A stretch of DNA of 63,987 bases, filler included, from Globobulimina sp. (taxonomy: Eukaryota): NCBI GenBank assembly GCA_003354225.1. It is 8 parts of 8 records of this genome, joined end to end, with 100 filler letters (N's around TTAATTAATTAA, not from the genome) between each part and the next. Parts side by side here need not be neighbours in the genome. Positions count along the whole stretch, not along the records: positions 48,580 to 56,551 come from PIVH01000103.1; 7 more parts are not named here. The stretch is one strand, 5' to 3'. This document shows, piece by piece, positions 5,967-56,907 of the stretch (within the stretch, counting starts at the first letter, position 1; every line of letters begins with the position of its first letter). A program made the position numbers and the translations under genes. The notes below the pieces were generated by a model. The model did not search any database. It saw only the letters and a list, made by a program, of their open reading frames with translations, and was not told the DNA's origin.

Positions 5967-8036
5967 ATGGCGAATTTTAACCCTTACGCTGAAAACACAA
6001 CAGCATGGCTGGTACATATATATCCTCAAAATCTGAAAGCGCAAAAACAACTAAATGTCCTATTCTGTTTTTGAATAAAAACAGAGCACAACAGCGAGTC
6101 AAATATTTTTTATGCAACTTGGATTTATGTGCTACGAGGTGGGATTTGTAAAACAAGTATGGGCGCACTCAATCATTCTCAAAAATATCGAAGCTACATT
6201 TGTAGTTTAGACATCTACCAACACCGCACAGTCCACACAGTCTACTCCGCACTCACTGTGTGTATATATTATATATAGGGGGTTTTAGTATATTTAGCGT
6301 TTGGTTACACACTCTCAGAATCACCACATACCTTTTATGGAATTATATCCATCCCAACTAATCCATTATTATTTGGTGTGCAGCCTGAGGTTCACGACCA
6401 AGTATTAATTTCAGTTAAGAAATATACCAAATATACTATGTAAAATATGCATCTGTTTCTGTACGCACACATTCAGGCATTCTTCGCTTCAACATCCGCA
6501 AGTTTTGTTTGTTTGTTTCTGTCAATATACCAATACTTCCGTCCATATATATATATATATATATCCACACAGCAATAATAAGTGGCGCTGTTTTGCAGAG
6601 AATGAAAAACAAAGCGTATGTATATTGGTGCTCATTAACGGTATTAATCAATTTCTCCTTTGTATCGCACTGGATATGGCACCAAAACGGCTGGTTGCTA
6701 GAGCTTGGTTTTGTGGATGGAGCAGGGTCACTTGTGGTGCATGCAACTGCTGGCATGGCCTCTTTGATCGCCATTTGGAGATTAGGACCGCGGAAAGGAG
6801 TGGTCAATGCAGATGAGATCACTTTGAAACGCGTTGAAAGCGCCTCCAGGCCGATCATTCATGCAATGGGCGCTTTCTTTTTATGGTACGGGTGGTATGC
6901 TTTTAATGTGGCGTCGCCCATTGCAGGCAGTAAAGGCATAGGGGACGCGATTGGAACCACGGCGTTGGTCACTGTGATATCTCCCGTTTGCGCAGCCTGT
7001 GGAGCATTCATATTAATGTATTTTGAATTTGCCAGTTTGAGTTTTGAAGACTTATTAAACTGTTTATTAGCAGGCTTGGTTGCCATCACTGGGCCATGCC
7101 ATTCCTGCAACCCTTTGGAATCCGCAGTTATTGGCTTTATTGCGAGCGTTGTTTACTTTGTTTCAGCGTACGTTGTCAGATACAAATGGCATATTGACGG
7201 TATGTACTACATTTGCGTCTGAATTCTGAACGTACGCAAAAATCGATGCTTCTGTACATAAACATGTGCACAGATCCGATGCAAATCACGTCCATACATT
7301 TATGTTGCGGGATATTTTCATGTTTTGCAGAAGGCATCGTTGCAAATGATGTGTATGGAACTCCTGGTTTAATATATGGCGGGTTTAAGCATTTTGGTAT
7401 TCAGATATTTGGCATTATCGTCGTTTGTTTATTTAATTTTATTGTATGTTTGTTTTTATATGAATTGCTGTTGAAAAGAGTGCTGTTTCGCGGCCGTGAG
7501 ATGAAAGTGTCAGTGTTGGACATTTATTTGGGAACACAAATATTTGTCCAAGATTACGCTTTGGCGTTGGAGGAAGTGTTAGAATGTCAGACGAATAAAG
7601 GAAAGAGAATGTTGTGGCAGTTTCATAAATATGTGCATAGTCGCTTTGCCTCCGAACAGTTGGATTTCTTGATTGTTGTTCAAATATTAAATAATTACTT
7701 GGCTGCCAAAAATCGCAAGAAATCGCATGTCAAAATCGCGAAATATATAATACAAATTATTGACACTTATGTCGAAGAAGACGGTGTTAAATGTATCAAT
7801 GTGTCCGGGACTCAAAGATGCATTTTGCTTCGCATCAAAAGTCAGATATTATTTGAATTGGAATTAGAATTAGAAGTTGATATTGGTAGAGATGGGAAAG
7901 AGGAGGAACGAGAACAGGAAGAGGAAGAAGTAAAAACACCGTCAGATCCGAGGAGAAGTGTGTCATTAATTCGATATCGCGCAGGATATAACAAATCAGG
8001 AATGGATATAACGACAGAAAATATATTTAAAACATG
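5967..8036 (+). CDS. Ammonium transporter (Amt/Mep) fused to a C-terminal RGS domain; 6 exons, 3'-truncated by contig end
   Basis: Spliced product MANFNPY...IFFMQLGFMCYEVGFV...AFFASTSATIISGAV...SHWIW..GWL..LGFVDGAGSLVVHATAG...LWYGWYAFN...IDDPMQITSIHLCCG, then in the same exon RGS-like LEEVL...FHKYVHSRFASEQLDFL...IIDTYV.....INVS..QR; introns 6012-6084, ~6202-6278, ~6414-6476, 6502-6572, 7200-7273. Confidence 0.85.
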
Positions 8037-8136
8037 NNNNNNNNNNNNNNNNNNNNNNNNNNNNNNNNNNNNNNNNNNNNTTAATTAATTAANNNNNNNN
8101 NNNNNNNNNNNNNNNNNNNNNNNNNNNNNNNNNNNN
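8037..8136. other. Artificial contig linker (N-run + TTAATTAATTAA + N-run); same linker at 16151-16250, 24247-24346, 32330-32429, 40406-40505, 48480-48579, 56552-56651
   Basis: Identical 100-nt structure with stops in all six frames; flanking contigs decrease in length (~8014, 7996, 7983, 7976, 7974, 7972 nt). Confidence 0.97.
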
Positions 8137-13177: not shown

Positions 13178-14440
13178 ATGTCGTTTAGGGAGCTTAAACG
13201 TATGTTTCCGAGTTGATGTCCGTATTGGCAGCAGTGTATGGCATAATATATAGTGTTCAGTGAGATAATGAAAAGTTTGGGATACGGAAGATTAATTTCC
13301 TTGGATAATTTCCGAAGGCCAAATTTCGAATTAGTTGCAGATATTTTATATTTTTTCTGTGATCGAATTGAATCATCGATTGATTTGAGTGATGACATAT
13401 CAACAAAATTGAAACGGGTTGAATTTATTAAAAATTGTGCAAATATTCTGGCATCCAAAACGCAGATAAAATTAAAATTAAAAAATCTATATAAATCTGA
13501 TGGCTATGCAGTCAAAGAGCTACTCAAAATTGCTAATTTCTTAAATGAAGCAAATAATATAAATGAAGAAGAAATAGAAATAGAAATTGAGATAAATAAT
13601 AATATTGGTACTAATTTAAACAAATTACGCGAATATACAAATTTGGGCAGTAAAATTGTCGAAAGTGGTGTTAAAATACATAACTTATTAAACAACAATA
13701 ATTCCGATAGGCATAACAGCAAAATAATTGATGAGAAAGTTATTATGTTTTTAGATGAAATGAGTCATAACATTGAAAATTATGACAATAAAATCAAGAA
13801 AAACATTGAAAAAAAGTTAAATCATTTAATAAATGATATTGATGATAACTTAAATGACTTAGAACAAGATAAACTCATTGAAATCAAAGAAAATATCGCA
13901 ATTTTCCAAAAGAAATTAAATGATAAAAATAGTGAGTATCAAAGATTAAATAAACGATTATTATCATTAAAAAATATAAAACCAGCATTTATTGAGGAAT
14001 ATGAAATATTGGAAAGTAAAAATATTGAAATATATGATTTATATACAGAGAAATTTCGAAATTTATCGTATTTACAATCTGAATTAAATAAATATAGAAT
14101 TATTGAATATGAAAAAGAGATGAAAACAAAAAAAAGATTAAAATCCGTGCAAAATAAATTAAGAGAACAAGAATTAAAATTATTAACAAATAATCACGAT
14201 GATGTTGATGATTTGGATTTATTTGATGCGAACCATAGAGAGTCAGGAAACTATGTATCAGCCGCATCGTCAATGACTAATACTAATACTAATTCAGCAT
14301 CGGCATCGGCATCGGCATCGGCATCGGCATCGGCATCAGCATCCACATCGGAAATGACATCACCACAGTCAATGAGTAGAAGCAATGATCGATCTATTGG
14401 CTCAATATCAGATATTGGTGATGAACGCATGCAATTTTAG
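13178..14440 (+). CDS. CLUAP1: Clusterin-associated protein 1 / IFT38 (intraflagellar transport B); 2 exons
   Basis: MSFREL|..SEIMKSLGYGRLISLDNFRRPNFELVADIL, LYKSDGYAVKELLKIA, KPAFIEEYE..E, Y.EKFRNLSYL; intron 13200-13253. Confidence 0.93.
14296..14342 (+). repeat. (GCATCG)n coding microsatellite encoding a Ser-Ala tract
   Basis: Directly visible tandem hexamer. Confidence 0.9.
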
Positions 14441-16150: not shown

Positions 16151-16560
16151 NNNNNNNNNNNNNNNNNNNNNNNNNNNNNNNNNNNNNNNNNNNNTTAATT
16201 AATTAANNNNNNNNNNNNNNNNNNNNNNNNNNNNNNNNNNNNNNNNNNNNGTTACATATAATTCCATATTTGTGTCATATTTTATATTTGGTGAGGGAGC
16301 TGGACCAGATGAAGCTGGCAGTCTTATTTTCTTTAAACATTTTCAATTGTAAAAAATAACAGAAATCCGAAATAGCAATGCAAAAGATAACAAACCATAT
16401 TTCTGGAAATTTCTTCTTCAAAACTTTAATAAATGTTTTCGAGTTTTATGTCAAGATCCTATAACAAAAGCCGTTGCTGAGGAATAGAAATAATTAATTA
16501 ATTAATAAACTAGTTGTGTATGTATGTCAATGTATAATTACATATTGATGACTATGATGG

Positions 16561-24065: not shown

Positions 24066-24346
24066 CCTTGGTGCTAAGAGCTATAAAAGTTCAAGTTTTT
24101 GAAAAGAGTTTTTATGAAAATAAACTCTATTAGACTACTGCCAATTAAGTTCGGAGGTTAAACATTCGAAAACCCATCTTTGTTTACTACCGAAGGGCTT
24201 TAGCTGCAAGCGTTCTAAAAAGTGATTCTTGTCCCTTTGGAACATCNNNNNNNNNNNNNNNNNNNNNNNNNNNNNNNNNNNNNNNNNNNNTTAATTAATT
24301 AANNNNNNNNNNNNNNNNNNNNNNNNNNNNNNNNNNNNNNNNNNNN

Positions 24347-32255: not shown

Positions 32256-32881
32256 TTCCATTTTGTTACGTTTATATTTATATTTATATATTGCTGTTAC
32301 ACATTGATCATGAAACAGATAGAAATATANNNNNNNNNNNNNNNNNNNNNNNNNNNNNNNNNNNNNNNNNNNNTTAATTAATTAANNNNNNNNNNNNNNN
32401 NNNNNNNNNNNNNNNNNNNNNNNNNNNNNTGTTTTAAAAATGTGATGATTGGGATTTGAACCCAAATATTCTTCAATAAGACGCTCTCTTTGAGCTATCA
32501 TCACAAGAATAGATTTGTACGCGGCCGCTGTCCACGGTCTATGGCCACGCTTGGTTTTTGTCCACGGCGCTCCGCATGCCGTCTCATAATAATTAGTTCT
32601 TGGGATTTCGCCCATTGATATTCCAATAATGAGTTGCTTTTCATTCTCGCCGCCTTAATATATGACGGCATTTATTCTCTCTTTCTCGCATTTAGACATG
32701 ATACTTAATGATTCAACGCTATTGCACTCAAAGGTTGCTTTTGGCATAACACTCGGTAACCTCTCGGGTGGACGTGGGAACTCTACAGTAGCATCTACTT
32801 TCATACAGTTAATCTTAGTCTAGGTGACGTTAAACTGAAGTTTTGTGTTTGCACACTAAGAAAAAATTAGTTTAGAGTACT

Positions 32882-40405: not shown

Positions 40406-40831
40406 NNNNNNNNNNNNNNNNNNNNNNNNNNNNNNNNNNNNNNNNNNNNTTAATTAATTAANNNNNNNNNNNNNNNNNNNNNNNNNNNNNNNNNNNNNNN
40501 NNNNNGCATGCGGCATTCAAAGTCTAGGAAAAAGTAAAAAGGTGTTAATTTGAAGTGGAAATTTTTACATTTTGGTATCTAGAGACAATATTAACTGATT
40601 ATACGCTATATATTTGTTATTGGTATCTGCTATTTGTGATAATAACATGTCTATCAATTATTAATTTAAGCACCACATTCATTTATTGCATGATATTATT
40701 GCTTATTTAACACTACATTCACAACATGGTTGATATACAAAAAGTTTTATAATTGAAATAAGAATATTACGAATAATAAATGAATCATTTTTTGGCACTA
40801 AAACAATTTATGAGAACGACATACATTTTAA

Positions 40832-46169: not shown

Positions 46170-48468
46170 TTAATTTAATTTATTTTCTTTCTTTCTTTTC
46201 CCTTTAGTTCTAATCTCCAAATGATTTTTTAATACATTATATCCAAAAAGAAATGCAGCAATACATGCAATAAATAACCAACCGCCAGCTTCAAATATAT
46301 TCCATTGCCACCAATATAGAAACAATATGGCAACGATGGCAGATAAAGATACAATAAATAAACCGGAAGAAAGTTGTACATCACGTCCAAATGTAATCGA
46401 TGTGCCAGTTGTAATAAACACATAGTTGAAAAAATATAATAATGGAAATAATAAAATAATACAAAATATCAATGGAAATAAAATAATTGGCTCCCTTTCT
46501 GCATTACCAAATGTATGCGATATCTTTTCCTTTGCTCTCCATTTTGGTATCTCATCATTAATGGGCTCATAATCTACATCGGACTCATCCTCTTCTTCTT
46601 CGATACAATTTATAGCCACGATGTTATTCCATGTTAACGACTCAGAATACAACGGGTCCCCAACAATTAGATTTAATCTATATTTGCCTCCAGATAACAC
46701 AGAGAATAGTCCGCGACTTAAATCGATGGTAATTCCATACTTTTCTTGCCTTGTTTTGGGTACAATTTGTAACACAGATTCGCCATTTTTATCATCCACA
46801 AAATCGATTATAATTTGATTTGCCTTCTTTGCGGATTTGACTTGAATCTCAATTTTGACTTTTTGTGATGGTGTCACATCATAGCTTTCTGATAACTGTT
46901 TTGGATGAGTCACCCTCGAATATCCATCTTGTGATTTTTTCACATATTGCATACCAAACACTGTTTTACTAATAAATGTAGTCACTTTCACGAGAGTCGA
47001 TATTGTTAATTCTTTCCCAAAATTATCATCATTCACCGTAATTTTCAATGAATAAATGCCATGAATGCCAGCATTACTTTCATCCGATGATAATTTTCTT
47101 ATTTCTTCACCAAATGGATATGAATATGAATATGTATTTCCTTTTTCTTTTATGAATGAGCCAATTGGACCTTGTTTTTGTTTGTTTGCAATTTCGACAC
47201 AAGACACAATCTCAATACGTGTATTCTCATTTGCTGCCAACATTTGTTCACCAAAAACATTTCTAATCGATATTGTTAATGCATTCTCTTCTTTGTGTGC
47301 ATCTGCATTTTGATTAAATATTTTATTCTCAATTTCTATGGATATTGGTCGTGATATGTCAAATAACACAGATGATTTCACCATATTCATTAAAATAATG
47401 ACATGTCGAGCTGATGTTGGGCCTATTAAGTGTTTTGAAGATAGTTTTAATTAAATTAATATCTGCGATTTTAATATTAATAGAAATTTATTATTTAACT
47501 TGTGGTGGATCGAAATGTTAAAATATATCTTAGAATATTTTCAACATATTGTTTATCATTAAATTTATCAAATTGTTGAGCAAAATGTTTTAATTCATTC
47601 ATTGATAACAAACTTTGCAAAAATTCATTTATTGATTCTAAGACAACAGAGGTTGCAGTTAATGAGTTTGAATAAGATATCATATTTTCGTTTAATTTTG
47701 AATAAGATGTCATTAATACATTGGCTGTCTCCACGAATGAGGCCAATAATTGAGTCATCTCTGCTGATTCTTTCATTTCTTTTTGTTGCTCCAATGTTAA
47801 ATTGGGAAGAGATAATAACTGGAAATGTTGCAATTGTTAATGATTAATTTCTGGAAATTTCAAAAACAAAAATAAATAAATTAACTAACTTTAGCAGTGG
47901 CATACAACGCCATCGATGTTTTATGAATCGACGATTTGGATTTTGAGGATTTAATTTGTTCAGTAAACAATTTGTTATTTAATTGAAAGCTTTGAATATG
48001 TTTTAATATCTCAACAATGTCAAGCGAGGAAGTGTCATATAAATTAGATTTTGTTTTTGCCAAAGTATAAATGCCATTGATTGAATAATAAACTTTGGAT
48101 AATTTATTTGCTGACAAACCATCGCTTAATTTCTTTTGTGATGCATCTTTGATCGAATCTAAACAGTTTTTGATTCGTGAACGGGATAATAATAAATTAT
48201 GAAATTCCTCCCACGATGATATTTTATATGATTTTAAAGTGGAACATAATTTATCTCCATTTTGTATGTCATTATTGCTGACAGACAATGCTTGTGTGGC
48301 ATAATAAGTGGTTGTTAATGATTTCTCAAATAAGCCAGTGCTGCTGTCTTGGGATGTGCCAATAATGGAAGATAAATAGTCTTCATCTGATGCTGTGTAT
48401 AATGTATCGAGGTAACTTTCATTCAATACAATACAAATACAAATACAGCACAAAAAGAATGACAGCAT
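46170..48468 (-). CDS. RPN2: Ribophorin II / oligosaccharyltransferase delta subunit; at least 3 exons
   Basis: Signal peptide; G.Y.L.LIVGD, I.HTF...E..P, three C-terminal TMs with LF.LYW...NIFE and G...L. Confidence 0.85.
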
Positions 48469-48674
48469 TGTTTTTATTANNNNNNNNNNNNNNNNNNNNN
48501 NNNNNNNNNNNNNNNNNNNNNNNTTAATTAATTAANNNNNNNNNNNNNNNNNNNNNNNNNNNNNNNNNNNNNNNNNNNNTTCAGAAAACAATCTGAAATT
48601 TCTTATACTCTATATATGTTATAATTTGGTTATTAAATTAATTTGAGAAAAAGAGAGAAAAATATATGTATATC

Positions 48675-49922
48675 TTACCAATTTGTATAATCAACGCGAT
48701 TTGCCCATGGATCAAATATTTGGCCAACATTATTATTGATGTTGTATTCATTGTTATTGGCAAAGTTATTATTCATAAAATTGTATCCATGGACCAATTC
48801 TCTAATAAATGTAGCAAAGTGTTCCTCTTTAAAGCACATATATCTGTATGACACATGTGGTAAATTGGATGGTTTCCATCCTACATATTTGAGGATTTTA
48901 GGATGCGGTATTTGGTTGTTATTGGCTAGGGATGAGCCACCAATTCTGAATGCATAAGAGGTATATCTCTCAGATTCTGATATATTACAAATCATTGTAA
49001 TTTCCTTTGCTATATCTAATAAGTGCGACGTTTCTACATTTATATTATTTTTAAATCTGAATAAGTTCTGATTTCTATCTATTTTAAAATATTTATTTTG
49101 CAATGCATAGTTATATGATCTTTTTAAATATATAGTTAATAATAAATAAGGGTTTATATAGTTACACGGACAGTGTTTATTTGTATTTTTTATGTATTTC
49201 TGTCCACATCTTGAGTCCCCAATGATTACTCTTTTTATAACACTTTTAAATTTTTGGTTTTTAAATGATACTACGAATAATTTAAAATACCAATCTAACT
49301 TATTTGGGGATGTATTTATGTGAAATAAATGTTTTAATTTAACTCCGAATTTGGTTTTGTTAGATTTACATATAATTAATTCACATGGTCTTGACATAGA
49401 ACAAAAATAAATTTGTGCTATTAATACTTTTAATAATTTGTCAATATCAATAGATAGCAGATGCTGTCCATAAGCTTTATAAAATTTTGTATATTTTATT
49501 AAATGTTTTAATTCAAACGGCAGTCTGCTTTTTGCCACTTTCCAATATTCAATTCTTAGCCCACTCTTAAAATCTTGAAAATCCATATCTTGTTTCCATT
49601 CGGTTTTGCTTCCACATAATTTGCATAGCCAAACCAAAGTAGATTGCCATGTATCAATTGATTGGACACTGCCTAATTGTAGTGCCCTTTCGGAGAACCA
49701 ATAAGTTATAGTTAGCGGATCCAATGGCATTTGCAGTGGGTCTTCATCGATTGTAAGGCAATATTTTGACCAATTTCGCAGACTGGAGACATAATGTATT
49801 TTTGTGCCATGTACTTTGTCTCGGGATCTTATTTTTTTTATATGTCTTGTATTTCGAGGGTCTTTTGGGGCAATTCTATTATTAGCTAACCGCGCATGAA
49901 AAAATACTATATACACACACAA
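48675..49922 (-). CDS. Tyrosine recombinase of the retrotransposon
   Basis: SRPCE (R), FKN (K), SYAFRIGG (H/YxxR), VGW, YRY (Y nucleophile). Confidence 0.88.
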   Translation of the reverse strand: MCVYIVFFHARLANNRIAPKDPRNTRHIKKIRSRDKVHGTKIHYVSSLRNWSKYCLTIDEDPLQMPLDPLTITYWFSERALQLGSVQSIDTWQSTLVWLCKLCGSKTEWKQDMDFQDFKSGLRIEYWKVAKSRLPFELKHLIKYTKFYKAYGQHLLSIDIDKLLKVLIAQIYFCSMSRPCELIICKSNKTKFGVKLKHLFHINTSPNKLDWYFKLFVVSFKNQKFKSVIKRVIIGDSRCGQKYIKNTNKHCPCNYINPYLLLTIYLKRSYNYALQNKYFKIDRNQNLFRFKNNINVETSHLLDIAKEITMICNISESERYTSYAFRIGGSSLANNNQIPHPKILKYVGWKPSNLPHVSYRYMCFKEEHFATFIRELVHGYNFMNNNFANNNEYNINNNVGQIFDPWANRVDYTNW

Positions 49923-50548
49923 ATTTTAAAATTTAATATTGATTGTTTGTAAATAGACTTTGATTGATTGTAAATTACAAAAAAATAGAAAGACAAAAAT
50001 GATAAACAGTAATGCCCAGAACGATTAACAAAAGACAATATTAATGTTAATGTTTAAAGCTTGTTGGGTTTCATTAGAGTTTCGAAGGTTTTTTAAGATT
50101 TAGCTCAAACGTTTTTTAGTCACTTTGCTTCCCTAATAAGGGGAGCGTGACACGAGCCAGAAACAGAGAAGATATCTGCTCATAGTCAACAACTAATATT
50201 GGAGCAGTCTGAGGAGGGCAATATTGTAAGCATTGCAAAATTTAACTGATTATTAATCAAAATTGGTGAAAGTGAATTTATTTATTTGACAAAGAAATAT
50301 TCAATGAAATTAACAATAAATAGTAATAACATATAAATTATCAATGGATTGATGATAATATAACATATTTGACACATTTCAAGCGATTTTAAACAGTTTT
50401 TAATATCAGTCAATTATAATTAAAATAAGTATACAGAAACACAATTTTTATGATTTATAATTATTAAAGTTATAAACGAGCATTTTAGGGAATGCTGAAT
50501 TGAAAATAAGTAATAAAATGAAGCAATTTATGAATATACAGCAAATTA

Positions 50549-52414
50549 TCAAATTTCCATATAGTATTTATACGGTGAGACAGCTCTGATATTTAAGGGT
50601 TGTTTTAACCATTTTATAAAGTTCGCATATTCAGCCATGTCATTCTCATAATTCATTAAAGGATTTTTAGCAAATTGATATCTGCCAAAATAATCAATAT
50701 TTGTTTCTGCTAATTTTAAATTAAATGTATTGCATAATTTATGGAATTCGATCATTTTAAAACGAGATAAGCGGTCTGGTAAAAAATTAAAGGCCGATGG
50801 AAGCCAAACAAAATGAATATAAATTTTATATTTTATCATTAATAAACATAATTCATATACAAATATCATCATATTATAGGAAGTCGACCATTTTCTAATC
50901 ATTGAATAATAACATGATGCATTATCAATATATAATTTTAATGTTTTTCCAGTTAAAAATCGTTTATGAGACTCAATTAATGTTAAAACACAATGGGCCT
51001 CTTTTTGATTAATAGATAGATCTAAGTCATTTTTATTGAATTTATATTTTGCGAAATAAGAATCAATGACATATCCTGCACCAAATTCGCATGCATCTGT
51101 TGCTGCGAATACATTTATTGACGGATTATTTAAAATTGTATACATTGATACAATTTTAATATTATCAATCCATTTGAGCCAAAAACGTAAATCATTAATA
51201 ACTGAAATGGGTAATATTATGCAATCTGATTTATTTATGCGACCATTACGTATATTTTTATGTATATAAGCCAATGATCTGTATGCTAAGGCTTTTGTGG
51301 CTTTATTTAACTGGCTCCAATGCATTATTTTGCCGGTTAATGATTCTAAAGCACGGCCAGTCGCAATTCTATATTTTATGACTAAGGAAATGAAATATTT
51401 TAACTGTTTCAAGGCTAAATCAGGTATTTTAAGTGTTTTATTATGTAAATTCCAATAAATACCATATATAATACCTTTCCTTACACAATTTACAGATTTA
51501 TGTTCAGAAACTTTGACTTTTAGTTCCTTCAATAAATTGTCAAATAAATTTGTTAATAAAATACAATCAGATTTGGATTTTGCGGCTATGACGAAATCAT
51601 CGATATGAACGAGAATTGAATTTATTAAATGTTGCTGTTTATTATTAAGAATACAATGATTTAAAATCCAGACTAAAATTGTTGAAAAATACTGGGAATT
51701 ACCGGGTGCTGAGGATACCCCATACGGTTGGCTCCGATCTCTAAACCGTAGGCCAAAAATGGAGTACCCTACAAAATCTGCATCGCTTTCAGGCAATTTA
51801 ATTTGTCTGAAAAAGTCAGCTAAGTCTCTCAATGACATATATTCATTGTTTATAAGTAATTTTGTATAGGTTTTCAAATTTGGGAGATCTCGCATGTTAC
51901 ACTTTTCTTTGCGAATCCATTGATTTATGGCGGTTTTACCTGAAGCATGAAATGAGCCGTTACGAATGACTCTGGTTTTAGTATATAATCCAAATTCGTC
52001 TTTTTTAGGTGTCCCAAAGATCATTAATACATATTTTGGGTCGTAATTAATGGGCTCAATTTGACCTTTGCTGCACTCCTCAGATAATTTATCAATAAAT
52101 GCAATAATATCATTTTGGGTACATACTAAATTATTAATTTTTGTTGACAAATTTGAAGGTTCCCAGCCTTTGTTATGGAAGGATTTCCATAAAGGAAAGC
52201 CATTTTCGATGAAATGGATTTCTAATTTACCATTTTGTTTAAGTTTGAGGTATTTTCTAAATGCATTTATATTAAAATGATGTTTGTTTTTATAACCTTC
52301 GGCGTGTAATGTTTGTAAATTTTTTACTTTCTTAGATATTACGGGATCGATCACTGAATTTAGTATGTACAGAGTAGATATTATTGGCACACAAATATTT
52401 TGTACAACAAACAA
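50549..52414 (-). CDS. Reverse transcriptase + RNase H (DIRS-type)
   Basis: PKK...K.RVI, DL.DFFRQI, PYG.SSAP, HIDDF; RNase H TDAC, INQKE, IDN, N..PDRLSR. Confidence 0.92.
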   Translation of the reverse strand: MFVVQNICVPIISTLYILNSVIDPVISKKVKNLQTLHAEGYKNKHHFNINAFRKYLKLKQNGKLEIHFIENGFPLWKSFHNKGWEPSNLSTKINNLVCTQNDIIAFIDKLSEECSKGQIEPINYDPKYVLMIFGTPKKDEFGLYTKTRVIRNGSFHASGKTAINQWIRKEKCNMRDLPNLKTYTKLLINNEYMSLRDLADFFRQIKLPESDADFVGYSIFGLRFRDRSQPYGVSSAPGNSQYFSTILVWILNHCILNNKQQHLINSILVHIDDFVIAAKSKSDCILLTNLFDNLLKELKVKVSEHKSVNCVRKGIIYGIYWNLHNKTLKIPDLALKQLKYFISLVIKYRIATGRALESLTGKIMHWSQLNKATKALAYRSLAYIHKNIRNGRINKSDCIILPISVINDLRFWLKWIDNIKIVSMYTILNNPSINVFAATDACEFGAGYVIDSYFAKYKFNKNDLDLSINQKEAHCVLTLIESHKRFLTGKTLKLYIDNASCYYSMIRKWSTSYNMMIFVYELCLLMIKYKIYIHFVWLPSAFNFLPDRLSRFKMIEFHKLCNTFNLKLAETNIDYFGRYQFAKNPLMNYENDMAEYANFIKWLKQPLNIRAVSPYKYYMEI

Positions 52415-52669
52415 ATGTGGAAATTAACATAAATATTAATTCACATTGACAAGTTTTTAAAATTTAAGAATGAAAATTAAATAATTAAAAGTAGGAAGAA
52501 ATTTAATTAAAATGTTGGAAAATTGTTGAAAATTTTGAATACGAATTAATATTTTGGTATAAATAGTTAATATTATCCATTCATAATTAGTTTGAACATA
52601 ACAATGTAAGCAAATATTAAGAAATGATATGAAAATATTAATGAATATTCATATAAATAGTATAATTCG

Positions 52670-53727
52670 CTAACGTTTATCACATTTCATTAATGGATGA
52701 TTTTTGTTATCAATAATACACAAATGGTCTCTCCCACATTTTTCACCTAAACGACAGTAATTATATGCATTATAAAAGCAACAATATTTGCTTTTTAATG
52801 AAAAGGGAGTGCCTGAATTTGCTAATAAATTTTGACACACTTTTTCAGCTGCTTTGGGATTTAAATTGCGATTTCTTTTCGGGGGTTCATTAGGTTTATT
52901 ATTTGGTTTATTAATTTGTTTGTTATTATTTGGTTTTGTTGGCATTTTATTCGACCACGATTTATTATAATTATTTGAATATGGAATCCTTACTGTTTTT
53001 TCATTATAACCCTCGGATTGTAAGTTATTTGCTGTATTTAATTTTCCCAAAATCAGCGCATTTTGTAATATTTGAAGTACTTTATTTGGTTTCTCATTAA
53101 ATTCGGATTTGTCATAAGATAAAAATGTGGCAGATAATAATTGATCTAATGACGATTTTGAATTCATAGTTAATTGCGATTGCATGATATTTGATGAAAA
53201 TGTAATATAATACGAATTATTTCTATTTAATGCATGTTTAATTCCTTTATTTATCCATGAAAATAATGAAGTTGCTGAAATGCGATCATTTTTAATTAAT
53301 GGTTTTAATAATTCACCAAATTTTGATAAATCAAACATTTTATAAGCACAAAATGCGCGAATTGTGCGAAACAGCAATTGTTGATTCATATTGGTTGGAA
53401 TTAATAAGCTTAAACTGTCAGAAATTAATTTGATAAATGAAATAATATAATTATTAATATTCACAGCATTCCATTTATTTACAAATAAAGATTTAAGCTC
53501 TTTTGTTATAGAATAATGATCAATATTTTTTATATTCGGACTTAAGTATTTAAATATTTTATAATACAGATCATAAACAGTAAAATCATCAGAAACAAAA
53601 CCACTGAAAAAGAGAATTAATTCAACTTTTACAGCAAATTTATCATTTTTGGTCATTATTGTTTTTATTTTTGAAGAATTTGATGGTGAATATAACTTAA
53701 TAATATTTGCCAAATTAAAATTACCAT
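52670..53727 (-). CDS. Retrotransposon Gag-like C-terminal part with Cys/His finger
   Basis: CCFYNAYNYCRLGEKCGRDHLCIIDNKNHPLMKC resembles the finger ending DIRS/Ngaro Gag ORFs. Confidence 0.7.
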
Positions 53728-53975
53728 CTTAACAAAATATTAATTTATTAAAATTTCAAAACAAAGATTCACAAAACTAACAGATACGCATTGTAAAAGG
53801 GAAGAATTGTGGTTGTTGTACATATAAATGAAATTAATGGGCAATGGAGAATTTAGTAAAAGAATCAATCGTAAGAAGTGATTTTATGTCACATACTAAG
53901 CGCCAGAAACCATTAAAAATTTACCAAAGTCATTGCAAACATTGTAAAATTTGGGGAAAAGAGAATATAAAGGTA

Positions 53976-56090
53976 TTAACTCTCTAATTCTGTTAAAACA
54001 TCGTTGTTCGTAATACGTGTACCCGATGGGGTATATTTTGTATTTAATAAATTGTTTAATTTGGTGATTGTTTTGTTTTTTTGTTTTGCAACGACTTGGT
54101 CAACCATTACGACAATGGGATCCTGCTTTTTTTGTTTGTCTATAACAAATCCTGTGATTTTATTAATATTTACAGATTCAAGACATTCAATGGTATTCGG
54201 GTCATCATTGTTGTAATCAAATTTAGGTTTTAGTGCGAATTGGAGATTATTTTGGATACGTTTATTTTCTTCAAATTTAAGTTGGAATTCGCGTGTAATA
54301 TCACTACGTAAAGTGGCTAAATCCGCGGCTGTAATTGCTTGAGGGGTGAATTTATTATTTCTGCTGTAATTATTTTGGTAATTTGGAACCATATTATTTG
54401 GGATTACAGCCATTTGTGAATTAATTGTAAAGGGATTTACGTTGCTTTGCTGTGTATTTAGTGGAGTATTATTTGTAGTTTGTGTTGGAAAATTATTGGG
54501 GATTCGCGCAATTACTCTATTTTGAGGGGAATTGTTTAGTTTCCTTCTTTTTAATGGAGGTTGATAATTGTTGGAAGTGTTGGAATTTGTGGGATTTTGA
54601 AAATTGTTGGCGACAATGTTGGAATTTGTAGGCGAATTATTATGAATCAATCCAATGGGAATAAATCTATTTGTTAATGTAGTAATATATTTGTTTAAGT
54701 TTAATATATTTCTATTTTTATCAATTATGCCTGTTTGAACTAAGTTTTTTGATACAGATTTTAACATTTTTGGATATAAACGATCAAATTTATTGTCATC
54801 TAAGTGCCCAATATATTTAATAAGCGCCTTAATTGTGGCATGTTTATTTTGTGGTGTATTTATATCAAAATTAAATAAAATAATATTGGCAATCATTGCA
54901 GTTAAAACTGAGCCAATATTAACTTGGGAGTTATAATTTGGTATTGTGTCCATTTTGTGTGATTCTGCTTTTATGGATGAAATAAAATTATTGTAATTTT
55001 CTTCGTTATCATCGACTAAGCGTTGGAGTGGATTTTCATTTGCAAGTAAATCAATTATTGAATTTGTAGCTGAATCCATCGAAAATAAGTTGTCTAAAGT
55101 ATTATTATTTATATTTGTTGTTTTTAAAACGCTATCAATTGAGGCTTGGAGATTATTTATTGGTTTGTTTAATTTTTGTGGTTTTTGATTTGGATTTATT
55201 TTCGGTGGTAAATTCATTGAAAAATTGTTTGAATTATTTCTATTTTGAACTTGCTGTGAGGCAGTTGGTTGATTATCAATTTCTGATTTTTGATTGTGAT
55301 TATTTGGGATCTGACTTAAAGTGGAAGATAACTGCGAAGGTAAGGAAGTATGTAAACCATTATACAATCCATTACAATCATTATTAATTATTGCAGCTTC
55401 ATCTTGTAAATTTGTATTATTATTGGTATTATCTCGTATTGTAGCTGGTGATAAGGAATCTAAATATTGTATACAATCAAATTGACGTATAACGGAATAT
55501 AATGTAAAGCCAGCTGATTTTTTAAATTCATTGAGTTTATTGGCTTTAAACTCCGAACAAGTTAAATAAATCAAATCAGACAGATTTCTGACTTTTGCAT
55601 ATGAGTCTTTATTGGCTCTCATATAACAAATATTTAAGAATAATTTTAAAGAATCTAAGACATTGCGGGACGATGTATTCGTGAACCAAATGAAATTTGT
55701 TGTTAATTGGAAGAAATGTATTAATATTAATAATTCACATTTGTTTAAATATAAATCGGGTTTTTGTTGATTTTTGGGTTTCTGTGGTGATTTTGAAAGG
55801 ATAGCTGAGTGTAATATTGCTTTACCAAAGGATATTTTCCAATTTTTCTTGGATATATTTTTAATATCATTCATTGTTAATAAATTAAGGAAGTTATTTA
55901 AGTGTAAATTTGCATATTGTGTATCAGCAGGAATTTGTTGTGGGGGATTATTTGTATTATTATTATTTACGTTTTGAGCTATGTTATGTTTTTCTTTTTG
56001 TTCTTTGTTATCTTTATTGGTTTTGTTTTGTTTGTTTTGTGATTGATGACTTTGTTGAAAATAATTGCTTTTCTTATTTCGTTGTTCCAT
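53976..56090 (-). CDS. Retrotransposon ORF1, N/Q-rich Gag-like N-terminal part
   Basis: ~700-aa low-complexity ORF at the element 5' end; PPLKRRK NLS-like motif. Confidence 0.6.
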   Translation of the reverse strand: MEQRNKKSNYFQQSHQSQNKQNKTNKDNKEQKEKHNIAQNVNNNNTNNPPQQIPADTQYANLHLNNFLNLLTMNDIKNISKKNWKISFGKAILHSAILSKSPQKPKNQQKPDLYLNKCELLILIHFFQLTTNFIWFTNTSSRNVLDSLKLFLNICYMRANKDSYAKVRNLSDLIYLTCSEFKANKLNEFKKSAGFTLYSVIRQFDCIQYLDSLSPATIRDNTNNNTNLQDEAAIINNDCNGLYNGLHTSLPSQLSSTLSQIPNNHNQKSEIDNQPTASQQVQNRNNSNNFSMNLPPKINPNQKPQKLNKPINNLQASIDSVLKTTNINNNTLDNLFSMDSATNSIIDLLANENPLQRLVDDNEENYNNFISSIKAESHKMDTIPNYNSQVNIGSVLTAMIANIILFNFDINTPQNKHATIKALIKYIGHLDDNKFDRLYPKMLKSVSKNLVQTGIIDKNRNILNLNKYITTLTNRFIPIGLIHNNSPTNSNIVANNFQNPTNSNTSNNYQPPLKRRKLNNSPQNRVIARIPNNFPTQTTNNTPLNTQQSNVNPFTINSQMAVIPNNMVPNYQNNYSRNNKFTPQAITAADLATLRSDITREFQLKFEENKRIQNNLQFALKPKFDYNNDDPNTIECLESVNINKITGFVIDKQKKQDPIVVMVDQVVAKQKNKTITKLNNLLNTKYTPSGTRITNNDVLTELES

Positions 56091-56907
56091 TGAATTCAAC
56101 GGATGAGAAATATCTAATTGTTTATGTGTTTTTGTGTTTGGTTTTTGTTTCTTTTGTTGTTTTAGGTTTTTGCAGAGTTATCACGTCAGTGAAAGGGAAG
56201 CAAAAAGTTGAAGTAAAGTTTTAGTGAAGACTTCAAATTTGACATACGCAAATTTAACAAATGCACACAACACAAACTTAAAATAAGTAGATCAAAATGA
56301 AATGTTAATATAGCATATTTCGAGATATCATGATGTTTTGAAAGATATAAATAGATTTTCAGTTGTATAAAAATGTGATAATAAGATATATAAATAGATT
56401 TTCAGTTGTATTATACAGTATAATCAGTATTCCTTAATTGAATAACCAATCCATTCCAAGTTATAAATGGTTATGTAATGCTATTAACAGATGTGTCATA
56501 AACAGTGCATGGTAATTTGCAATTGTTACATAATAAAAACCTCCATTGGCTNNNNNNNNNNNNNNNNNNNNNNNNNNNNNNNNNNNNNNNNNNNNTTAAT
56601 TAATTAANNNNNNNNNNNNNNNNNNNNNNNNNNNNNNNNNNNNNNNNNNNNTATGGATGATTATATGAATTGGATGGTATCACCATAAATTATATATATA
56701 TATATATATAATTATTGACTATCATTCTTTTTGATGTTCCTCTTGTAATTTTTATGTTGTAAATAACTTGTTATTGAATTCGATTAACACGTACTATTAA
56801 TTAATTCGTTTCTGGAGCGAGCGATAAAGCAAAAATACCTAATCATTTACACTCTAAAATTACTCTTACACCATCCCAACTTCGCAACACCAATTTGACA
56901 GTACCAA

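Follow-up and report, generated by a model that had tools for sequence, protein, structure and literature searches.

To our knowledge, it is not settled how the separate open reading frames (ORFs) of tyrosine recombinase (YR) retrotransposons, such as the DIRS, Ngaro and PAT elements, are translated. The Ngaro layout, as given in excerpts of two papers, consists of one or more Gag-like ORFs followed by reverse transcriptase (RT)/RNase H (RH) and YR, with no methyltransferase and with ORFs that do not overlap (PMC8547959, PMC3266345); an excerpt of the first of these adds that Ngaro gene structure was not resolved by gene callers (PMC8547959). DIRS1, again from excerpts, has inverted terminal repeats, an internal complementary region, a methyltransferase and overlapping ORFs (PMC7192593, PMC3266345). 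Here we describe a retrotransposon of Globobulimina sp. (assembly GCA_003354225.1) that occupies contig PIVH01000103.1, positions 48580 to 56551 of the window, which is the whole stretch of DNA that was analysed (63,987 nucleotides, filler included). The window's copy of the element, which we call W, lies on the minus strand; it is a Ngaro-like YR retrotransposon, intact and recently active, in which three of the four ORFs have no ATG near their starts. We propose that these ORFs are reached by splicing, in which a single 5′ splice site, located where the first ORF ends, would be joined to one of three acceptors.

In the retroviral scheme, a single major 5′ splice site is used with several acceptors. 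Splicing is also described, in an excerpt, for the long terminal repeat (LTR) retrotransposons copia, BARE1, Bagy2 and CRR, and for Ogre, which "splices between ORFs" (PMC3735527). As we propose for the Globobulimina element, in retroviruses and spliced LTR elements the unspliced RNA is both genome and Gag message, and spliced RNAs supply the other products; these elements differ from it in possessing LTRs and a DDE integrase. A further difference is that the candidate donor of the Globobulimina element lies in phase at the end of the first ORF, and what its fusions would have in common is all of ORF1, not a short leader. Penelope-like elements keep introns through retrotransposition, which an excerpt calls "highly unusual among retroelements" (PMC8557442), but these introns are mostly single or in the 5′ untranslated region, no alternative ORF expression is reported for them, and the enzymes are unrelated (GIY-YIG). 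A literature check, suggested in an earlier reading of this DNA (hereafter the original prediction), turned up intron-bearing LTR and Penelope-like elements and none among DIRS or Ngaro elements: excerpts of the papers covered (PMC8547959, PMC5890265, PMC3783388, PMC7192593, PMC8557442, PMC12477816, PMC3735527, PMC3266345, PMC6431247 and PMC4157794) mention no introns or splicing of the genes of YR elements themselves, and an earlier mention elsewhere cannot be ruled out. As far as this search reached, it suggests that expression by splicing has not yet been described for the YR retrotransposon class.

Metagenome and whole-genome shotgun contigs were scanned with an RT alignment, giving 14 loci and, with W, 15 elements; the viral contig and genome contig sets contained no related loci. 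One locus, L001, is a 91% copy of the element with a frameshifted RT and a decayed YR. Three others (L002, L004 and L013) are 40–43% identical relatives with the same order of ORF1, ORF2, RT/RH and YR and the same stop-filled spacers, and L002 has all four ORFs intact. The remaining ten loci are more distant, with GC contents of 31–62% (29–62% over all 15 elements). On the minus strand of W the genes follow the order ORF1, ORF2 (with zinc knuckles), RT/RNase H and YR, and all four are open; the gaps between them measure 246–623 nt and no ORFs overlap. The features are as follows, a slash within letters or between adjacent coordinates marking a putative boundary between exon and intron.

48580..56551, minus strand: whole element as assembled; 3′ end cut 95 nt past the YR stop
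53976–56099, 52670–53713, 50549–52414 and 48675–49922, minus strand: extents of the four ORFs by ORF convention, with AT-rich, stop-filled spacers between
56091..56551, minus strand: 5′ non-coding region; 84% identity to L001 over a ~60-nt block immediately ahead of the ATG
56345–56368 and 56388–56411, in the 5′ non-coding region: perfect 24-nt direct repeat, listed as 43 nt apart
53976..56090, minus strand: ORF1; ATG 56090–56088, TAA 53978–53976; Asn/Gln-rich; under purifying selection
53979..53981, minus strand: split codon A/GT, 5′ splice site candidate; exon would end at 53981 and intron start at 53980 (GTTAAT)
53728..53980, minus strand: spacer or putative intron 1; 253 nt; stops in all six frames; no codon periodicity
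52670..53727, minus strand: putative ORF2 exon; acceptor AAG/AT at 53728/53727; stop TAG 52672–52670
52354..52674, minus strand: spacer 2; GT at 52674–52673 (C/GTTAG) a lineage-specific candidate donor, lost in L001
50549..52353, minus strand: putative RT/RNase H exon; acceptor TCAG/TG at 52354/52353; stop TGA 50551–50549
49886..50548, minus strand: spacer 3; conserved acceptor TTAG/CT at 49886/49885
48675..49885, minus strand: putative tyrosine recombinase exon; SRPxEL and YxxRIGG motifs; stop TAA 48677–48675

The original prediction had described a DIRS-type retrotransposon with four minus-strand ORFs and AT-rich spacers; the ORFs and spacers are where it put them, the spacers are full of stops, and the domains bear out a YR retrotransposon. 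The RT ORF (621 amino acids, aa) matches Pfam RVT_1 (E = 7.4e-9, 36 bits against a cut-off of 29.6), and the invariant DD motif of RT is present in 19 aligned relatives. Its match to RT_RNaseH is weak (E = 0.0036) and at 17.9 bits falls under the cut-off of 24.8; precomputed PF17917 matches exist for 3 of 21 relatives, and the RT/RNase H alignment has conserved D, E and D columns. Pfam matched the YR frame in none of eight family members. Aligned with seven relatives, this frame keeps the motifs SRPxEL and YxxRIGG; a profile search of PDB sequences returned an integrase, 3nkh_A (E = 0.019); and with an AlphaFold2 model (pLDDT 74.1) Foldseek placed Cre recombinase at the top (E = 1.1e-7), followed by XerH and lambda integrase, with 40 chains at E <= 1e-3. 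As modeled, the fourth frame is a tyrosine recombinase with a Cre-like fold. ORF2 has a weak CCCH finger by Pfam and invariant Cys/His zinc-knuckle residues at its C terminus, and in 4 of 6 aligned elements 3–7 residues separate the last invariant Cys from the stop; the protein is predicted to be helical, by a low-confidence model (pLDDT 37) that is unusable for structure. ORF1 belongs to no Pfam family and has no Atlas match, and the copy in L001 was the sole homolog found.

Neither a methyltransferase nor a protease nor a DDE integrase was found in the element. Pfam shows only RT and RNase H in the 621-aa RT ORF, which terminates shortly past the RNase H part, and a PAT-like methyltransferase after RT/RH was not encountered. 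Long inverted repeats of the kind that mark DIRS1 are absent from W, L001, L002, L004 and L008. Because there is no methyltransferase, the ORFs do not overlap and RT/RH is followed by YR (the distinguishing features in an excerpt of PMC3266345), we class the element, by domain content and order, as Ngaro-like rather than DIRS1-like. YR and RT/RNase H are common to the element and DIRS1 of Dictyostelium, but the other DIRS1 traits were not seen. With Ngaro it shares a Gag-like product encoded first, then RT/RH and YR, the lack of methyltransferase, protease and DDE integrase, and ORFs that do not overlap. It departs from Ngaro in having two upstream ORFs, ORF1 (500–780 aa) and the zinc-knuckle ORF2, as well as spacers of 60–850 nt, an ORF2, RT and YR without ATG, and splice-site signals at every boundary. 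No terminal repeats, such as the split direct repeats that characterise Ngaro (A1-[ORFs]-B1A2B2), were seen in the W and L001 contigs; since the W contig extends 95 nt beyond the YR stop, they would be out of view in W. The L002 contig begins and ends with the same 119 nt (1–119 and 8015–8133), giving a unit of 8014 bp, and this overlap fits, without proving, a circle, a head-to-tail arrangement or a collapsed terminal direct repeat.

The ORFs of the element are under selection. By codon position, identity between W and L001 is 0.92/0.975/0.65 in RT, 0.84/0.89/0.67 in ORF2 and 0.77/0.83/0.58 in ORF1, and fourfold sites are only 0.49–0.59 identical, a pattern indicating that all the ORFs are real genes and that the copies diverged as working lineages. 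One might still suppose that W is a dead copy with broken ORFs, or that TAA and TAG are read as sense, as in the ciliate code; the host is AT-rich and ciliated or flagellated, and the stops embedded in the candidate donors are TAA and TAG. We give this supposition almost no credence: the layout of four ORFs with spacers recurs in relatives of 40–43% identity, host ORFs read well with the standard code, the ORFs of W are all open, and the element is repeated in the genome, 63 of 345 contigs aligned to it from one DNA run being at least 99% identical. Translation with the ciliate code (table 6) was tried and rejected; TGA stops persist in the spacers and the frames do not merge. Nor are the ORFs fused in the DNA of any relative among the best 150 of 1163 RT relatives, found among 1.8 billion proteins, none of which exceeds 760 aa.

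ORF1 alone has an ATG near its start. At 28 of the 30 junctions examined in the 15 elements, the interval from the upstream stop to the conserved beginning of ORF2, RT or YR is devoid of in-frame ATG codons. The first downstream ATG lies a median of 70 codons in (110 codons for the RT of W), and family-invariant residues precede it. The TTG codons with which the original prediction had opened these three ORFs proved to be a product of the ORF convention; its underlying point, the lack of an ATG close to the conserved start in ORF2, RT and YR, stands. Because the ATGs are missing and invariant residues precede the first of them, ordinary initiation cannot make the ORF2, RT and YR proteins. Some retroelements, R2 for example, initiate translation without AUG, and it could be imagined that ORF2, RT/RH and YR are translated, with no splicing, from full-length or subgenomic RNAs through internal non-AUG initiation, similar to that at an internal ribosome entry site (IRES). 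ORFs that start without ATG are what such a mechanism would produce, and the conserved spacers described below could then be entry or promoter elements. We nevertheless consider it improbable, on account of features at the boundaries that it does not predict.

The first of these features concerns the acceptors. At all 30 junctions an AG in the same phase directly precedes the point where conservation of ORF2, RT or YR begins, such that the upstream exon would contribute one base of the split codon and the downstream exon two. The nearest in-frame stop lies 0–4 codons upstream of the boundary at 11 of 23 junctions, and a stop within 4 codons pins the boundary. Two properties that played no part in picking the acceptors also set them apart. 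The base at −3 is C in 18 cases, T in 9, A in 3 and G in none; pyrimidines thus occupy 27 of 30 positions, against 257 of 566 at interior A/G codon boundaries (binomial 4e-7). The run without AG that leads up to the acceptor is also longer: its median over 23 acceptors is 49 nt, compared with a median of 16 nt for the 173 other AG-to-AG gaps of these spacers (Mann-Whitney 1.8e-6). On the sense strand, spacer 2 of W (52356–52669) contains no AG in 314 nt, where 6.9 are expected (P = 1e-4, 20000 shuffles); since the same 314 nt include 14 CT, the depletion of AG is strand-specific. In L001 the AG-free stretch of spacer 2 is 222 nt. L001 has kept the AG at 49886, as have all ten other elements with a YR junction. 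Internal initiation predicts neither a boundary AG with a pyrimidine at −3, nor an AG-free stretch, nor a phase shared by three ORFs.

The second feature is the donor. All five elements that include the homologous C terminus of ORF1, representing four lineages, have a phase-matched GT there, at a constant place in the motif D-[VLC]-[LV]-x-[EK]-[LV]-[EQ]. The sites read aga/GTTAAT in W and L001, aag/GTTTAT in L002, aag/GTAAGT in L004 and aag/GTACGT in L008; a GT in matching phase where ORF1 ends, canonical in context in the last two cases, is again something that internal initiation does not predict. Were the RNA left unspliced, read-through would meet a stop 1, 1, 4, 24 and 2 codons past the donor in W, L001, L002, L004 and L008, respectively. 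At the end of ORF2, a phase-matched GT in the last 5 codons was found in 3 of 10 elements (W, L013 and L003). In L006 a GT 6 codons from the stop would itself introduce a stop codon, the final 40 codons of ORF2 in L002 contain no phase-matched GT, and the W candidate (52674) reads ATT in L001. For RT, a phase-matched GT is missing from the final 40 codons in 5 of 12 elements, among them W. We also considered a donor in the 5′ leader or close to the start codon of ORF1. In L004 there is ATGA/GTGAGT, yet that heptamer recurs twice more in the Ser/Glu-rich ORF1 of this element, and nothing convincing appears in W, L001 or L002; the donor at the end of ORF1 was preferred.

Judged from these sequences, splice signals rather than independent initiation best explain access to the downstream ORFs, and we think it probable that some splicing is required for expression. 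As to its form, we lean toward one 5′ splice site, three alternative acceptors and fusions of ORF1 to each downstream product, for one donor with three acceptors of the same phase points to alternative choice of the 3′ splice site and not to serial introns. The full-length RNA would carry one conserved donor, 53981/53980, in the last codons of ORF1, and same-phase acceptors at 53728/53727 (ORF2), 52354/52353 (RT/RNase H) and 49886/49885 (YR). Unspliced, it would yield ORF1 alone, terminated one codon past the donor, and would act as the template for reverse transcription. Joining 53981 to 53727, 52353 or 49885 would give ORF1-ORF2, ORF1-RT/RH and ORF1-YR fusions, with ORF1 lending its ATG and body to ORF2, RT/RH or YR, and splicing would take the role that Gag-Pol frameshifting has in retroviruses. 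The sequences themselves show the ORFs, the selection on them, the missing ATGs and a GT and AGs conserved in place, phase and context; site use, the pairing of the donor with the acceptors and the fusion products are what we infer. Such a scheme would explain the missing ATGs, the uniform phase, the absent downstream donors and the stops in or near the donor (24 codons away in L004). Among the 15 joints listed, out of 34, in contigs of one DNA run, none matched a donor-acceptor pair as a processed copy would.

The original prediction had instead proposed serial introns that join ORF1, ORF2, RT/RH and YR into a single polyprotein, with intron retention setting the ratios of the products. Its first intron (53980–53728) is exact, and the relatives keep both its donor and its acceptor at the corresponding place and in the matching phase; the stops it noticed within the donors at junctions 1 and 2 (GT-TAA and GT-TAG) are there as well. 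Serial joining could also claim the phase-matched pairs that W has at junction 1 (A/GTTAAT..AAG/) and junction 2 (C/GTTAG..CAG/), a pair at junction 3 (CC/GTATAA..AATAG/) that is in another phase, and the first ~45 nt of spacer 2, which are 83–87% identical to L001. The GT-AG pairs lie at the coordinates first given for them and are in frame, but they are no more than chance would supply: enumerated blind, in-frame pairs number 7 at junction 1 and 6 at junction 2, and counts between unrelated host ORF pairs are comparable. For the second intron, the acceptor (52354) holds and the donor (52674) does not, given its loss in L001 and the rarity of an ORF2-end GT among relatives, intact L002 having none. 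The third was misplaced; its acceptor, AATAG/A at 49876/49875, is in another phase and is AATCG in L001. The conserved AG is the one at 49886, 10 nt upstream. The end of ORF2, so close behind the last invariant Cys, looks like a true C terminus, and the RT end lacks a phase-matched GT in W itself. Comparison with related loci, akin to the alignment of other genomic copies that had been offered as a check, upholds the GT at the end of ORF1 and the AG at the boundaries and finds the ORF2-end and RT-end donors absent in most relatives. We regard the Gag-RT-RH-YR polyprotein as unlikely; a weaker form of it, an ORF1-ORF2-RT product, may exist in the W lineage only. Overall the earlier observation is confirmed in part and its interpretation supported in part, the YR retrotransposon and the splice sites being retained and the serial polyprotein and the third intron given up. 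The accompanying statement that these introns exceed those of the host takes its host figure from one homology-supported intron of 74 nt and two inferred introns of 67 and 77 nt.

Conservation extends into the spacers. In spacer 1, ~210 nt (53770–53980) are 83% identical to L001 (range 77–90%), above the identity of ORF1 or ORF2; the spacer has no coding periodicity and has stops in all six frames, and by these measures it is a constrained non-coding element. Spacer 2 is conserved between W and L001 in its first 45 nt and its last 110 nt, and spacer 3 has a block of ~150 nt (roughly 49992–50142) that is 80–100% identical to L001 and lies 100–250 nt upstream of the YR acceptor. The same block falls in a bin (49910–50175) covered more deeply than the flanking bins by the diverged copies of run X1. 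Identity in the conserved spacer blocks is 0.77–1.0, compared with ~0.5–0.6 at fourfold sites, and the blocks may be splicing controls, internal promoters or cis replication signals. It is this conservation that keeps internal non-AUG initiation alive at a low probability; against it, spacer 1 and the spacer 3 block fold no better than shuffles (z −0.38 and −0.64) and match no Rfam family.

A number of points weigh against one donor serving three acceptors, the reading we prefer. Spacer 1 is conserved beyond the needs of an ordinary intron and could serve a different purpose, such as that of an internal promoter or IRES. The acceptors were chosen by eye with the pattern expected, and an unbiased rule that takes the AG ending the longest AG-free run agreed with this choice at 4 of 23 junctions. 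Four lineages, loosely aligned over a short motif, make up the evidence that the donor is conserved. In two of the elements, L004 and L008, the exon carrying the donor does not share the main frame of ORF1, so a frameshift or a further small intron is required there. A candidate for the latter can be given for L004:

L004 1941–2008: candidate extra intron; 68 nt, phase 0, GTGAGC..TATCAG; would restore the ORF1 frame

The W donor, GTTAAT, is far from the canonical consensus, and the host preference is known from one supported and two inferred introns. The scheme implies introns of 1.6 and 4.1 kb, which are very long next to host introns of ~70 nt. L011 accounts for both junctions at which an in-frame ATG does occur, in each case ahead of the split codon, and the YR split codon of L008 and L011 is immediately followed by an ATG; ordinary initiation is possible in these two elements. 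Finally, the sequencing runs that carry the element comprise one DNA run and no RNA run, and splicing is here read from DNA.

Whether W exemplifies a widespread Ngaro-like clade, in hosts of 29–62% GC, that uses retrovirus-like splicing with conserved intron 1 as a ratio switch is a question on which we are evenly divided. If alternative splicing from the end of ORF1 is correct, it would explain why the downstream ORFs lack start codons, and it predicts the exact junctions. It would mean that a retroelement beyond the world of LTR elements and retroviruses keeps introns, relies on them and tethers its enzymes to a Gag-like partner, and would constitute the first expression mechanism to be worked out for the DIRS order, a splicing counterpart of Gag-Pol frameshifting. 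It would also supply a rule for annotating the clade: an in-phase GT at the end of ORF1 and a YAG ahead of each downstream ORF.

The window is a chain of eight contigs of ~8 kb, whose lengths descend from the second contig onward. They are joined by linkers of the form N44-TTAATTAATTAA-N44, each of which puts a stop in all six frames, and 48580–56551 is a separate contig of 7972 bp. Because the element is on its own contig between linkers, the genes to either side are not its neighbours in the genome. The host DNA is AT-rich and gene-dense. A search for enrichment of the donor hexamer in host DNA gave no signal, and Pfam continuity across the two inferred introns of the ribophorin II gene gave no support. 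The features outside the element are these.

8037–8136, 16151–16250, 24247–24346, 32330–32429, 40406–40505, 48480–48579 and 56552–56651: linkers
7200–7273, plus strand: host intron in an ammonium transporter gene; 74 nt, GTATGT..CAG; homology-supported
47834–47900 and 47415–47491, minus strand: candidate host introns of 67 and 77 nt in the ribophorin II gene; from ORF continuity only
13253–14440, plus strand: Cluap1/IFT38 gene; match E = 1.2e-64

The inferred donors of the two ribophorin II introns, A/GTTAAT and A/GTTAAA, resemble the donor of the element, A/GTTAAT. From its Cluap1/IFT38 gene, the host is an organism that builds cilia or flagella.

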